Positions 8,674 to 40,952 of a stretch of DNA of 64,000 nucleotides are shown here, in pieces. The position numbers and the translations under genes are program-made. The DNA lies in IMG/VR virus record IMGVR_UViG_3300021963_000055, positions 40,878 through 104,877 of that record; one strand, given 5' to 3'. The stretch comes from a virus. Within the stretch, counting starts at the first letter, position 1. The number at the start of each line of letters is the position of its first letter. Under the pieces are notes generated by a model. That model worked only from the letters and a program-made list of their open reading frames with translations, had not been told where the DNA came from and ran no database searches.

Positions 8674-10350
8674 TTACTTATATTCCCACATGTAAGCCAT
8701 ATCGCCATACTCATCAACATTCCATTTACTATCAGTAGCAGAAGTCCAATAATCTCCTTTTGTATCTATAAAAGTAGTTTCATCATCAGTTAAGCCATCT
8801 AGTATAAAACCAAATGGAGCCATATCCTGTTCAATAGCCTCTCTTTGGTCTTCAAAAATTCTTTTTCTGACATCATTTGAAGTAAGCTCTCTAAAGTAAG
8901 GTTGAGTGGATAGCCAGGAAAAAATCACAAGACACATGGCAAGGTCATCGTTACATCCTTCTTCTGCATTAAAGGTATCACTTTTTTGAATGAACGTAGT
9001 AAGCTCACTAATAATATCGTAATCAGGAATCAATAATTTATCATCTTCAATCAATGCTTTCAGATTAGCACATCCATACTTTTTGACAGCTTTAGTCATC
9101 TTGACTCCTAACTGTGCTTTATTGGAAAACCCAGTGCCAACTAATTGTCCAGCACGACCTTTCATTGCACACATAAGCAAGTTATCATATTCAAGATCAA
9201 ACTGAAGAATATCTGCCACTTGTCCTCCAATATCATTAACTTCAACAAGTACGTTAGCGTTGTTGTAATTTTTACCTACGGTATCAATAATATTAGGGAA
9301 CAATATTGGTTTGATTTCGTTGTTTTTATATTTTGCTACTAATTTATATGGAATAGTAGTTACATCAATCACAGCAAATGCAGAGTAATCATTTCCAACT
9401 CCTCGTGCAACGTCAACAGTCATAACATAGTCATGACCTTCTATTACGTCTTCATATACATCCAATCCACCACTTCTCTTTAGTGGATCTTCATAAACCA
9501 TAGAACGAAGTTTATTTGGATTAATGAGAGTATCAACAGATCCTAGGAAGGTACATTCAAATTCTTGCTCAAACTGTCGTTGAGAAGTGTTTGCAATAGT
9601 TTCTTCTTTCCATTTTTGGTCTCTACCTGGAACATCCCACCAATTAACTTCAAGTGGAGTGTAACTGTTTTTTCCTCGTTCTGCATCATGCCAAAACTTG
9701 TAGAACATGTTCATTCCATTTGGTGTGGAAATGATAATAACTTTAGTTGTCTTACCAGATGAAATGGTTGGATATACAGAGCTAAAGAACTGTTCTGCAA
9801 TATGGTTTGGAATGAATGCAAACTCATCCAAAAAGATGATGTTAAAAGAGTTCCCTCGGACAGCAGATGATGAGGTAGATGCAGCAATAATTTTAGATCC
9901 GTTCTCTAGCTCCAGTGAGCCACGGTTCCAAGAACCCACGCCCTGCTGTAACCATTTGGGTAGATTTTCATAGGATAACTGCAATCTGGATAGAAGTTCC
10001 CTTGAGGTCTCTGCTTTATTTGCAAGAATAGCTATTTTTACGTTTGGGTTGAAAAGTGCATAGTGCAACAGGTAGGAAACCACAGTAGTTGATTTCCCTG
10101 TCTGTCTTGGAAGCTTTGCAATATTGAATCTATGTTTATGAAAATTATCAATTAATCTTTCTTGAAATTCCCACATTTTAAAAGGTACTAGACCTTCATC
10201 AAGAGAAACAATTTTAATATACTTTTTGGCAAAGTAAATTGGGTCTTCTTGACACTTCAAATATTCTTCTAATTGTTCAGAAGTAAATTGTATTTGTACA
10301 TTAGAAGGTTTTAGGTTGGGATTACCCTTATAACTAGATTTATCACTCAT
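8674..10350 (-). CDS. gp17: Terminase large subunit
   Basis: Walker A PRQTGKST, Walker B IIFLDEFAF, nuclease motifs VDVARG and NDDL. Confidence 0.98.
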   Translation of the reverse strand: MSDKSSYKGNPNLKPSNVQIQFTSEQLEEYLKCQEDPIYFAKKYIKIVSLDEGLVPFKMWEFQERLIDNFHKHRFNIAKLPRQTGKSTTVVSYLLHYALFNPNVKIAILANKAETSRELLSRLQLSYENLPKWLQQGVGSWNRGSLELENGSKIIAASTSSSAVRGNSFNIIFLDEFAFIPNHIAEQFFSSVYPTISSGKTTKVIIISTPNGMNMFYKFWHDAERGKNSYTPLEVNWWDVPGRDQKWKEETIANTSQRQFEQEFECTFLGSVDTLINPNKLRSMVYEDPLKRSGGLDVYEDVIEGHDYVMTVDVARGVGNDYSAFAVIDVTTIPYKLVAKYKNNEIKPILFPNIIDTVGKNYNNANVLVEVNDIGGQVADILQFDLEYDNLLMCAMKGRAGQLVGTGFSNKAQLGVKMTKAVKKYGCANLKALIEDDKLLIPDYDIISELTTFIQKSDTFNAEEGCNDDLAMCLVIFSWLSTQPYFRELTSNDVRKRIFEDQREAIEQDMAPFGFILDGLTDDETTFIDTKGDYWTSATDSKWNVDEYGDMAYMWEYK

Positions 10351-10365
10351 AATATTTTATTTAAA

Positions 10366-10581
10366 TTAACAATTCCAGGCTCTTAAAGATTTATTGATTC
10401 TGCTGTTTGGATCGTTGGCTGTTTTTGAACTAGTAAGTTTCTTTTTCATACCACTCATCCTGGCACAAAATGATGCCCTGCGAGGATTGCCTACCTTTTT
10501 TGAAGGTGCCTTGAGATCGCTTCCAGGATTTTCTTTTTCGTATGAGCGGCGTCCTTTTTCATTCAGTCCGCCGCTTGGGGC
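10366..10581 (-). CDS. -1 frame extension of the 11627 gene (71 aa, DUF6321-like); predicted fused product about 420 aa
   Basis: APSGGLNEKGRRSYEKENPGSDLKAPSKKVGNPRRASFCARMSGMKKKLTSSKTANDPNSRINKSLRAWNC-stop. It continues the EGAAWTKKSGK motif and has no start codon at the beginning of the domain. Confidence 0.85.
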   Translation of the reverse strand, partial: APSGGLNEKGRRSYEKENPGSDLKAPSKKVGNPRRASFCARMSGMKKKLTSSKTANDPNSRINKSLRAWNC

Positions 10582-10587
10582 TTTCCC
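10545..10587 (-). promoter_or_regulatory. Candidate programmed -1 ribosomal frameshift signal
   Basis: In-frame G GGA AAG (10587-10581), spacer CCCCA, stem AGCGGCG / CGCCGCT with a 17-nt loop. Confidence 0.75.
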
Positions 10588-11627
10588 GATTTCTTAGTCC
10601 AAGCAGCTCCCTCAGTCTTTAACTTTGGCTTTTTCCACTCAGGACCTTTTAGTTTTGATTTAGCTACAGAAGCTTCCCCTGCACTAGTAGTTCTATCTGC
10701 AAGATTTCTAATCTTTGCTTGCTTTTGAGCAGTTTTATGTCCAGGACCAATCTCAAAGCTTGCTTCTTTCATAAATTCAGAGAAAGATTTTGATTCCCCT
10801 CTAAGCTGACGATAATGTGCTTTCTTTTCTGCACCAGAAGAACTCTTTAACCATGGATCATCATGATCAATTGAAGATTTATTAACTTGAACAGTCTTTA
10901 CTTTATTCTTTGCATATGATTTTCCACTACCATATACAACTTTAGTTTTTGTTGGTCTAGTTGATTGATAAACTCTTCCTCCGCTACCAGTACGACCAAC
11001 TTCTACTCTTCCTTTTGCTTTATCAATTAATCGTCTAATTAATCCTTCATCCAATTCTTCATCAGATGCAAGATATTCGGCAGCAGTATCTACAAAGTCC
11101 GCAGCTCTAGTAATTTTAGATTGTACCCATGCAGGTAGTTGCTGATTTGATTTACGAATAACTTTACGAAGCATAGCAATAGATCTTTCCATTTGATCTA
11201 ATTCAAGTTTTGCCATGTAACCTTCATGGTCTTTAATCTTTCCTGAAGCTATCTCTTTATGGTCTTCTTGCATGTTGAGAAGACTAGTATTCATTTCCCA
11301 TGCACTAGGTCCATATGAACACTCAGATTTTTTCTCTGGTTTTTCGCAAAGATGGCAATAACGAGTTTCTTCTTTCTCTTCTTTGACGGCTTTTTTACCG
11401 TTTCTCCATTCTCCCTTTAGTTTCTTTTCCATCTTGAGTAAGTGCTTGTAGTAATCTGGAAATTCTGCAATATGCTGAAGTGCGATATTGTACGCCTCAT
11501 CATGCTTTGTAACATGCTCTCGTTCTACAGTAGATCCAATTTCAGCTTGCCTGATAACGTAATCTACTGAGACGCCATGTTTTTTAGCAATCTCCTTTTC
11601 AGTAGGAACTCTTTTGTGTGCCATCAC
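10563..11627 (-). CDS. Modular probable internal head protein, zero-frame product (354 aa)
   Basis: DUF5661-like N-terminal module (VEREH...IALQHIAEFPDYY..L.KME), LPAWVQSKIT module, internal capsid-targeting-like KSFSEFMKEA. Ends five codons after a slippery site. Confidence 0.8.
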   Translation of the reverse strand: MMAHKRVPTEKEIAKKHGVSVDYVIRQAEIGSTVEREHVTKHDEAYNIALQHIAEFPDYYKHLLKMEKKLKGEWRNGKKAVKEEKEETRYCHLCEKPEKKSECSYGPSAWEMNTSLLNMQEDHKEIASGKIKDHEGYMAKLELDQMERSIAMLRKVIRKSNQQLPAWVQSKITRAADFVDTAAEYLASDEELDEGLIRRLIDKAKGRVEVGRTGSGGRVYQSTRPTKTKVVYGSGKSYAKNKVKTVQVNKSSIDHDDPWLKSSSGAEKKAHYRQLRGESKSFSEFMKEASFEIGPGHKTAQKQAKIRNLADRTTSAGEASVAKSKLKGPEWKKPKLKTEGAAWTKKSGKPQAAD

Positions 11628-12175
11628 CCACCTACAATCTGAACTTCAGTAATATGTCCTGTAGCAGCGCCATTGCCATCAGGCTTTACAGAAAATTTAA
11701 TTGAATTTGAAAGAGTTGCAGTGTCAGTAAAATCTGCATATGCAGATGAATTTAATGCAACAGTAATTGAAGTATCTGTAACTGCAATAACTTCTAGGTG
11801 TGCAATGCCAGTATTGTACGCAGCAACTGAAGATCCAGTTAAAGTTACATAGTCTCCAACCGCAAAAGGATGTCCAGGAGTACCAGTATCAAGAGGAATA
11901 TTCATCACTGTATTGGTTGCACCTTTAGTGATTGAAGTTATTCTTACTCTTTTTGGAGTAGCACACTTTACAATTTCAGAACTTTCTTTTGGGATATGAA
12001 AATCATTTCCATCTACTGCAGTTGGATTGCCACCCCATGCTACATGAATTGCATCACTAGCATCAGCAGTAAAACGATAAATTCCACTTCGTACAATTAC
12101 TGCAGCGGACTGTGTAGCGTTACCACCAGTACACGCCACCGCAGCAATATTTTGGACAACCTTAAGTACAGACAT
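11624..12175 (-). CDS. Conserved cyanophage virion-associated protein
   Basis: 183-aa beta-rich ORF (HPFAVGDYVTL, ITEVQIVG) in the gp16-gp17 interval. Confidence 0.65.
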   Translation of the reverse strand: MSVLKVVQNIAAVACTGGNATQSAAVIVRSGIYRFTADASDAIHVAWGGNPTAVDGNDFHIPKESSEIVKCATPKRVRITSITKGATNTVMNIPLDTGTPGHPFAVGDYVTLTGSSVAAYNTGIAHLEVIAVTDTSITVALNSSAYADFTDTATLSNSIKFSVKPDGNGAATGHITEVQIVGG

Positions 12176-12185
12176 TAAAATACTC

Positions 12186-12614
12186 CTATTCTTCTGTATT
12201 ATTTATTTTTGATTGTTTTAGAAACTTTTGTAGTTCTGCGGTGGAACCAACAAACATAGTATTATTTACAGTAGATGGACCTTTAGTTGGTTTATCTTCT
12301 TCAATATCTTTCATCTTTTTCTGAACTTCTATTAGTTTTTCTGCAAGCTCTGAAACATTTTTAATCCCTTGGAAAGCAACTTCATAAGCTCTTGGATGAT
12401 CACTTTGAGAAGCTACATCTAAAATTCCATCAATTGCTTTTTGTCCTTTTTGAATTAAATTGTATAGTTGACCTCTACTATATTTGTAATCTTTTTTTAG
12501 ATCTTCTAAATCTGAATCTAAAATAACTTCAAGTTCTGAAACTATTTCTGATGTGTCATTTGAGTTAGTTGGAACTATATCAAAAGTGTCATCTAATTTA
12601 TCGTATGCTGACAT
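12186..12614 (-). CDS. gp16: Terminase small subunit
   Basis: Motifs KDYKYSRGQLYNLIQKGQ, SDHPRAYEVA, NNTMFVGSTAELQK; start taken at MSAYDKL. Confidence 0.92.
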   Translation of the reverse strand: MSAYDKLDDTFDIVPTNSNDTSEIVSELEVILDSDLEDLKKDYKYSRGQLYNLIQKGQKAIDGILDVASQSDHPRAYEVAFQGIKNVSELAEKLIEVQKKMKDIEEDKPTKGPSTVNNTMFVGSTAELQKFLKQSKINNTEE

Positions 12615-12616
12615 AA

Positions 12617-13414
12617 TTATTGTGTCCAAAGTTCATTAAATCCAAAGTTATCGTCAGATTCAACTAATAAATCATCTGCAGAGTTAATTTTACCATCTTT
12701 ATTTAAATCTGTTAGTGCCTTAGGAGTTACACTATAAGTAACATATCTATTTGCATTGATAGCAGTTCCAATATCAACGTTAACCTTTTTAATGACATCA
12801 GAAGTAGTAATAGGACCATAAATATATGACTTTGCAGTGAATGTTAAAGTATAAATAATTGTTCTTCTTTGTGTAAAATCACCTTCATAGTCATCTTGAA
12901 TAGAAACATTATTCAGTAAAATTGGAATATCTCTTTTCTCATTTGTCTCTGCTACCATATTAATAGTAATTGAAAAATATGGCTGAAAGAATGGTAAAAT
13001 TTGCTCTAAAATTTGAACGGCATCATCATTATTCTTGCTGATGATTGCAACTTCAAAGTCTAGATTGTATGGCACTGGCAGATAATGAGAATATGTTTTT
13101 TCAGTATCTCCAGATTTTGGGGTTCTGCAGATTTGAGTAGGTCCAAGCTTTCTCGCAGCATCATAAGAAATTCCTTTCATCTCAAAAGAAATTCTGGGAA
13201 GCTGAATTTGTGTTGGTCGTCTCTTGTCTAAATCTGGCTCTGCTTCTATTCTAGCAAGAAATTTTTCTGTAGGTCCATATGCAAGAGGAACCTTAATTGT
13301 CTGCTTAACAACTCCGTCTTTGTCTTTACGTTGAAGTTCTATATTATTGAATAATGTACCAAATCCAACAATAGTTTTACGAATTGATTCGTTATAAAAA
13401 TGTGTACCTAACAT
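12617..13414 (-). CDS. gp15: Tail sheath stabiliser / completion protein
   Basis: Motifs FGTLFNNI, KVPLAYGP, LPRISFE, QILEQILPFFQP. Confidence 0.95.
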   Translation of the reverse strand: MLGTHFYNESIRKTIVGFGTLFNNIELQRKDKDGVVKQTIKVPLAYGPTEKFLARIEAEPDLDKRRPTQIQLPRISFEMKGISYDAARKLGPTQICRTPKSGDTEKTYSHYLPVPYNLDFEVAIISKNNDDAVQILEQILPFFQPYFSITINMVAETNEKRDIPILLNNVSIQDDYEGDFTQRRTIIYTLTFTAKSYIYGPITTSDVIKKVNVDIGTAINANRYVTYSVTPKALTDLNKDGKINSADDLLVESDDNFGFNELWTQ

Positions 13415-40769: not shown

Positions 40770-40952
40770 TTAGTCTCCTACTTTATGTATGCGAATTCCT
40801 GGAGTATCATGATGATCAAAGTACTCAAACTCTAAAGTATCTCCCTCTTGCCATTGCATCTCATCGAGGATCTCATCAGGAAATGTAATGAAGTACTCAC
40901 CAGATTTGTCATCATATTGCACTTCAGTTGTAAACGAAGAAAGACTAGACAT
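40770..40952 (-). CDS. AbrB/MazE-like small DNA-binding protein
   Basis: YFITFPDEILDEMQWQEGDTLEF matches the swapped-hairpin AbrB pattern. Confidence 0.7.
   Translation of the reverse strand: MSSLSSFTTEVQYDDKSGEYFITFPDEILDEMQWQEGDTLEFEYFDHHDTPGIRIHKVGD

Follow-up and report, generated by a model that had tools for sequence, protein, structure and literature searches.

A probable programmed -1 frameshift adds a DUF6321 module to a protein encoded between the terminase genes of a marine T4-like phage

Introduction

Why would a phage gene stop in the middle of a conserved domain when the rest of that domain lies intact in the neighbouring frame? The question is raised by a gene on the minus strand of a 64,000-nt stretch of viral DNA, positions 40,878 to 104,877 of IMG/VR record IMGVR_UViG_3300021963_000055 (hereafter, the window). 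The gene lies between those for the two terminase subunits, and a preliminary description made from the sequence alone had proposed that its two parts are joined by the ribosome. The comparative analysis reported here makes it likely that the break is a programmed -1 ribosomal frameshift, by which one start would give rise to products of 354 and 420 amino acids (aa). The window is part of a record of 104,877 bp with an estimated completeness of 57%, and its nearest relatives at the DNA level are myophages of Synechococcus and Prochlorococcus, with ~70-75% identity.

Tail chaperone genes account for most of the programmed frameshifting known in tailed phages, with a few capsid or tail genes besides. 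T4-like phages do without it for the tail chaperone, according to Vladimirov et al. 2022 as that work is cited in PMC10885494. We found no description in the literature of frameshifting at this locus or in cyanophages. The family to which the gene belongs corresponds to T4-GC119 of cyanophages, described only as a hypothetical protein and assigned to a mobile cassette in the hyperplastic region between gp16 and gp17 (Sullivan et al. 2010, PMC3037559).

Results

The reading frame breaks inside a conserved module

On the minus strand the junction reads AAA TCG GGA AAG CCC CAA GCG GCG GAC TGA, and what the preliminary description had said of the letters themselves (the heptamer and its register, the stop, the spacer, the stem and a 71-aa continuation in the -1 frame) proved accurate throughout. 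The -1 frame is open from 10593 to the TAA at 10368-10366, which ends 15 nt upstream of the gp17 ATG, and a slip on the heptamer would join 349 residues to a further 71 in a 420-aa product. DUF6321 (PF19846) is matched along its entire profile (1-72 of 72; 85.1 bits, cut-off 28.5) in the -1 frame only, and DUF5661 (PF18905) is matched by residues 11-69 of the frame-0 product (49.1 bits, cut-off 27).

A search of 5.8 billion proteins returned 1,135 homologs of the split gene. Those of cultured cyanophages, for example S-RIM2 SWUG_00084 and S-SSM5_108, are single contiguous open reading frames (ORFs) of ~400 aa, and in DNA alignments with contiguous homologs the window is short by exactly one base, directly after GGAAAG. 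Frame 0 encodes EGAAWTKKSGK but GGLNEKGR is read in frame -1, which puts the break inside the conserved unit. The distance from the W codon to GGLN is 30 nt in 41 of 44 distinct junction sequences and 29 nt in the remaining three. The earlier suggestion that these motifs normally form one contiguous DUF6321-type domain is borne out by most homologs, and the peptide of the -1 frame does match PF19846.

The same break recurs in diverged relatives

Two contigs from other metagenomes carry the break as well. L085 (on the same scaffold as L094; IMG 3300033233) reads GCG GGA AAG CAC CAA GCG GCG GAC TGA, and L099 (on the same contig as L101 and L114; IMG 3300044630) reads TCG GGA AAG CAC CAA GCG GCG GTC TGA. 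Both have an intact 71-codon DUF6321 ORF in the -1 frame, and over this extension they are 78-84% identical to the window in nucleotides. These three are the frameshift cassettes compared at the DNA level. The bodies that carry them differ greatly: 355, 271 and at least 591 codons are open upstream, and near the junction these cannot be aligned. At the protein level, four clusters drawn from Logan, NCBI and JGI assemblies stop exactly where the window does: P0006 (...SGKLQAAD-stop), P0010 and P0045 (...SGKQQAAA-stop) and P0043 (...SGKHQAAA-stop). If the -1 frame encodes S-G-G at this point, tails of the form ...SGK-x-QAA-x-stop fix the nucleotides CAAGCGGCGG.

Near-identity searching and tblastn with P0010 revealed no close relative in the phage collection, and a pattern scan of metagenomes gave nothing new beyond the source scaffold of L085 and an unrelated clade of small stand-alone DUF6321 genes. 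A scan of genome contigs gave 16 hits, all in bacterial genomes and resembling chance matches, and a region-restricted protein search yielded no additional frameshift-type members. The alignment of homologous loci that the preliminary description had called for favours its proposal: heptamer, stem and break are kept in three contigs, and four protein clusters end alike. Most relatives are in frame or lack the module. As judged from these alignments, the break is shared among independent relatives but is one allele class among several.

The stand-alone DUF6321 proteins, found in metagenome contigs (L087-L093, L095 and L096), form a separate clade of ~100 aa and start M(A/S)TPLWQRKGGKNPSGGLNEKGRK. 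Their genes contain the CAAGCGGCGG stretch and lack the complementary 3' arm. As these proteins begin before the W, the conserved unit includes the W...GK segment upstream of the slip site.

The -1 frame is under selection as a coding sequence

In pairwise comparisons of the three cassettes over the 71 codons of the extension, the proportion of synonymous differences (pS) is 0.52-0.59 and that of non-synonymous differences (pN) is 0.04-0.12, with a ratio of non-synonymous to synonymous rates (dN/dS) of 0.04-0.12. The extension contains no stop in the -1 frame, as against 3-6 in each of the other two. Within the 13 codons after the slip that are found in the cassettes only, at least 7 changes have occurred, all of them synonymous in the -1 frame and none non-synonymous, and both changes in the five-codon tail of frame 0 are non-synonymous. 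When the downstream part of the cassettes is compared with its nearest sampled in-frame neighbour, from which it has diverged by 14-22%, dN/dS is again low (0.04-0.08). These substitution patterns indicate purifying selection on the -1 frame. In a tree of the whole module the three cassettes form a clade with 99/99 support. We do not take this clade as evidence that the whole module diverged while frameshifted, since a control tree of the 156 nt downstream of the stem fails to recover it (see Discussion).

How the -1 frame is entered is constrained in the window itself. There the frame becomes open no more than 4 codons ahead of the slip, and it contains no ATG, GTG or TTG before codon +41. 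Thus, the conserved half of DUF6321 can be reached there from frame 0 only.

The heptamer and the stem are made of rare codons

All 3 broken junctions have the heptamer GGGAAAG here and none of the 41 in-frame ones does, and among the 14,504 codons of the long ORFs of the window it is the single in-register copy. Both the heptamer and the stem are built from the rarest codons of this AT-rich phage (34% GC). Given the amino acids encoded, the probability of TCG GGA AAG under the codon usage of the window phage is 0.0018, and that of the stem codons (AGC GGC...CGC CGC) is ~7e-6. The codon before GGA has changed between Ser and Ala among the cassettes (TCG/GCG), yet its final G is retained, although TCG makes up 1.8% of the Ser codons and GCG 4.9% of the Ala codons in this phage.

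Folding predictions place a GC-rich stem of 7-11 bp behind a spacer of 5-6 nt in all three cassettes. Its minimum free energy (MFE) is -20.9 to -21.1 kcal/mol in the window and -15.5 and -17.0 kcal/mol in the other two. None of 300 synonymous-codon resamples of the window (mean -7.4 kcal/mol) was as stable as the real stem, and for each of the three cassettes at most 1 of 300 was; against dinucleotide shuffles the window stem has a z of -3.5. The core pairs are retained in all three, with changes that are one-sided and of the type G-C to G-U only. No such stem is present in the closest in-frame relatives, L102 and L006.

Other stimulatory elements were considered. A Shine-Dalgarno-like stimulator was rejected, as the purine-rich stretches lie 19-22 nt upstream and are explained by Glu and Gly codons. 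Pairing of AGGA in the loop with UCCU downstream, a candidate pseudoknot, would amount to only 3-4 bp and falls within the conserved ENPG codons.

Allelic states of the junction

Four states of the junction are found in the family: fused without signals (WTRKEGQNK-type), fused with A_AAA_AAG and a hairpin, frameshift-dependent, and without DUF6321. Close relatives of the last kind end in KPKLK-stop or YIPRSKNA-stop, and P0002, which ends in EGAAWNC-stop, looks as if the segment between the two 'W' motifs of the module had been removed cleanly and in frame. That many close relatives lack DUF6321 (Table 1) suggests that the module is dispensable in some phages. With these module-less forms and the fused forms of ~410-420 aa, both predicted products of the window gene have natural stand-alone counterparts.

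The fused alleles with A_AAA_AAG deserve attention of their own. This heptamer stands in register, at ACA AAA AAG, in all 12 WTKKSGK-(SPS/NSE/SSS)-GGLN junctions that are in frame (in one case as A_AAA_AAA), followed 8-10 nt downstream by a hairpin of 6-7 bp and, in 11 of the 12, by a TAA in the -1 frame two codons past the heptamer. For 9 of the 12 the MFE has p <=0.05 against the synonymous-codon null. The hairpins sit in different registers, so that there is no strict covariation. The layout resembles that of dnaX, and a slip in these alleles could produce a truncated isoform. We offer tentatively, as a possibility that we hold to be doubtful, that the DUF6321 junction may be a recoding switch built in opposite designs, in which G_GGA_AAG with a GC stem would slip to the long isoform and A_AAA_AAG with a hairpin would slip to the short one. 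A 9-bp hairpin without a heptamer was also seen at the junction of S-H38 (L001).

The locus and its neighbours

The minus strand encodes, in order, a gp15-like sheath stabiliser, a gp16-like protein, a DUF7243 gene, the split gene, a gp17-like protein and a tail sheath protein (coordinates in Table 1). The DUF7243 gene (183 aa, phrog_682) weakly matches a PHROG annotated as major tail protein (E 2e-4), and it adjoins homologs of the split gene in cyanophages too, making this a conserved neighbourhood.

Table 1. Coordinates of the split gene, its predicted signals and its neighbours in the window, with relatives representing other allele classes
Feature	Position or members	Strand	Basis
Frame-0 ORF, 354 aa (short product): N-terminal DUF5661, helical modular body, end ...EGAAWTKKSGK-PQAAD-stop	10563..11627	-	ORF call; PF18905 E 7e-13
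Slippery heptamer G_GGA_AAG, in X_XXY_YYZ register with frame-0 TCG GGA AAG	10581..10587	-	sequence
Spacer CCCCA, 5 nt, from heptamer to stem	10576..10580	-	sequence
Predicted stimulatory stem-loop	10545..10575	-	7-bp arms AGCGGCG (10575-10569) / CGCCGCT (10551-10545), 17-nt loop
Frame-0 stop TGA, five codons past the heptamer, inside -1 codons CTG AAT	10563..10565	-	sequence
-1 frame TAA, limiting entry to 10593-10566	10594..10596	-	sequence
-1 extension, 71 codons plus TAA, complete DUF6321 (APSGGLNEKGRRSYEKENPGSDLKAP...SFCARM...SLRAWNC)	10366..10581	-	PF19846 E 5.3e-24
Motif K[ST][FY]xxF[IM]xE: KSFSEFMKE, residues 284-292 of the frame-0 product	10752-10778	-	motif scan
Large terminase subunit (gp17-like), downstream neighbour	8674..10350	-	Terminase_6N E 9e-25, Terminase_6C E 5e-15
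DUF7243 gene, between the gp16-like and the split gene	11624..12175	-	PF23891 E 3e-31
Small terminase subunit (gp16-like), upstream neighbour but one	12186..12629	-	PF11053 E 2e-7
Relatives without DUF6321 (proteins)	P0002, P0007, P0011, P0017, P0019, P0030, P0032, P0033, P0041, P0042		
Relatives without DUF6321 (loci)	L007-L015, L018-L020, L027-L029, L038-L042		
In-frame junctions with A_AAA_AAG	L021:2317-2400, L050:1993-2076, L057:1839-1922 and 9 other loci		

What the protein might do

The preliminary description had spoken of a head-protein gene, a label that we do not retain: no family, structure or paper assigns a function, and what there is amounts to the resemblance of a motif. At least eight PHROGs, which vary widely in length and are all annotated as of unknown function, have DUF6321 as their C-terminal module, and we found no papers that mention DUF6321 or DUF5661. 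Sequence comparison with the PDB gave no match. AlphaFold predicts a modular, helical structure for the in-frame homolog P0008 (pLDDT 64, pTM 0.23), and a Foldseek search of the PDB with this model returned no match with E <1. The motif K[ST][FY]xxF[IM]xE, present in 94 of 120 family members, precedes the AW of the DUF6321 unit by 2 residues in 41 of the members and lies ~50-70 residues upstream in 39. We take this motif to resemble the capsid-targeting sequence of T4 internal proteins, presumably no more than a lead. We looked for evidence that family members are present in virions or cleaved by the prohead protease and found none.

Discussion

The properties of the junction suggest how the two products would arise. 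When a ribosome translating the 354-aa ORF reaches G_GGA_AAG, its P site would hold tRNA-Gly paired with GGA, and its A site tRNA-Lys paired with AAG. The GC-rich hairpin 5 nt downstream is likely to oppose unwinding and thereby to stimulate slippage, such that part of the ribosomes would move back by one base (GGA to GGG, AAG to AAA) and read 71 further codons. These would make the 420-aa protein with its C-terminal DUF6321 module, and the ribosomes that do not slip would terminate five codons on, leaving the 354-aa body alone. ARAGORN predicts no tRNA genes in the window, which means that any tRNA-Gly or tRNA-Lys decoding the slip site would not come from this region of the phage. We infer that the slip is ribosomal and that the hairpin stimulates it; both products would presumably be functional, and the fixed ratio between them that the preliminary description had proposed is likewise presumed.

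A number of observations weigh against this reading. In-register slippery heptamers, mostly A_AAA_AAG arising from Lys-Lys, also occur in 16 of the 41 in-frame junctions, and since they are common in so Lys-rich a junction, the heptamer alone is weak evidence. The dinucleotide-shuffle z of the stem is unremarkable for L085 (-0.75) and L099 (-1.29), and the stem shows no double compensatory changes among the cassettes compared at the DNA level, a lack of covariation that we attribute to there being just three sequences. In the tree of the 156 nt downstream of the stem, the cassette clade appears in 0% of bootstraps. Recombination with in-frame alleles may therefore have taken place, and part of the low dN/dS may stem from in-frame genomes; the substitution count in the cassette-only segment and the comparison with nearest neighbours avoid this problem. 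Finally, seven codons before the slip (~21 nt upstream of the heptamer) the -1 frame of L099 has an ATG (L099:1963-1970) and that of L085, on its minus strand, a TTG. These start-like codons arise from the conserved codons GCN TGG, and the window is closed at that point, where it reads TTG GAC TAA.

Several of these points feed other explanations of the break. It could be a fixed frameshift mutation, which would make the short protein a truncated allele and the DUF6321 ORF a remnant, either untranslated or rescued at the level of incidental background slippage, with no selected signal involved. Alleles without DUF6321, whether ending in KPKLK or YIPRSKNA or carrying the in-frame deletion of P0002, are common and evidently viable, and an intact ORF could in principle be refreshed by recombination from in-frame alleles, as the downstream 156 nt are not monophyletic. 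What cannot be borrowed from in-frame alleles, however, is the pattern of change in the cassette-only segment, where 7 substitutions are synonymous and none is non-synonymous. The 71 codons have moreover stayed free of stops and indels in three lineages at a pS of ~0.55, and a heptamer and stem made of rare codons have been kept in all three cassettes while being absent from in-frame relatives. We consider a mutation of this kind improbable. Simple loss of a base in a short homopolymer during sequencing or assembly might be suspected from the CCCC that adjoins the break and from the origin of the record in a metagenome assembly, but the same break is present in two contigs from different metagenomes that differ from the window by 16-22% and have CACC instead of CCCC. 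Four protein clusters, drawn from three further data sources, share it too. This replication in independent assemblies excludes an error for practical purposes, and we give it next to no weight.

It is also conceivable that DUF6321 is expressed without ribosomal slippage, be it by separate or internal initiation, by reinitiation after the TGA, or by an RNA polymerase that slips and adds a base. The start-like codons of L099 and L085 each lie behind a purine-rich stretch, and stand-alone DUF6321 proteins of ~100 aa do exist in other marine contigs (L087-L096). Separate initiation is conceivable in L099 and L085 alone. In the window it is hindered by the TAA that closes the frame four codons ahead of the slip, and no ATG, GTG or TTG occurs until +41, which is past the most conserved half of the domain. 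Against reinitiation, the ATG that follows the TGA is a frame-0 codon, and the 23-codon ORF behind it bears no relation to DUF6321; with a longest homopolymer of 4 nt (CCCC in the window, CACC in L085 and L099) slippage by the polymerase is unlikely. Taken as a group, these routes seem to us quite improbable, and a programmed -1 ribosomal frameshift remains the explanation that we favour.

The mechanism proposed here is a familiar one; what would be new is its use in this gene family and by phages that are not known for frameshifting. It would be a well-supported example among marine T4-like phages, an abundant group, and within a widespread family of more than 1,100 homologs. An attractive aspect of the locus is its natural allelic series at one junction, with fused, module-less and frameshift-dependent forms, which provides a system for asking why a fixed ratio of isoforms is selected. 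Should the mirror-image designs suggested above turn out to be real, many marine T4-like phages would tune the ratio of long to short product by two mirror-image -1 signals, beside alleles that are purely fused or module-less. The short and long products also offer a handle on the role of DUF6321. In metagenomes, a practical consequence is that automated gene calling breaks this gene up or cuts it short.

How does the junction compare with known frameshift systems? It has the elements of a canonical -1 signal, namely an in-register heptamer, a predicted structure 5-6 nt downstream of it (~5-9 nt would be expected), an overlapping coding ORF in the -1 frame that has no start of its own in the window, and conservation of the signal together with purifying selection. 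In E. coli, G_GGA_AAG counts among the -1 heptamers that are highly prone to shifting (PMC5009743). As the preliminary description had stated, it is also the slippery site of the lambda G/GT genes, at which ~4% of ribosomes shift, and the likeness to that system extends to the coding of Gly-Lys in both frames, a frame-0 stop soon after, a C-terminal extension, and two products, one short and one long, that share their start (PMC3296357). The gene itself is unrelated to G/GT, being a DUF5661/DUF6321 gene that lies between the terminase genes rather than between those for the tail tube and the tape measure. Its matches in Pfam and PHROG are to DUF5661, DUF6321 and PHROGs of unknown function only, which together with the gp16-gp17 locus sets it apart from the class of lambda tail assembly chaperones. 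The GC-rich stem after the heptamer is a further difference; the lambda site is generally described as working without strong downstream structure.

In having a heptamer that ends in A_AAG and a stem-loop a few nt downstream, the junction resembles the signals of E. coli dnaX and of the IS3/IS911 type. The consequence of the slip would be the reverse of that in dnaX, where it leads to an early stop and a shorter product, whereas in the window it would lead to an extension of 71 codons; nor does the window have a Shine-Dalgarno-like element at the dnaX spacing, its purine-rich stretches lying ~19-22 nt upstream. Counterparts in cultured cyanophages are the T4-GC119 genes (for example S-SSM5_108 and S-RIM2 SWUG_00084), which share the family, the locus and the C-terminal DUF6321 module (EGAAWTKKSGK...GGLNEKGR...SFCARM...WNC) with the window gene. 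These are single contiguous ORFs without GGGAAAG or the GC stem.

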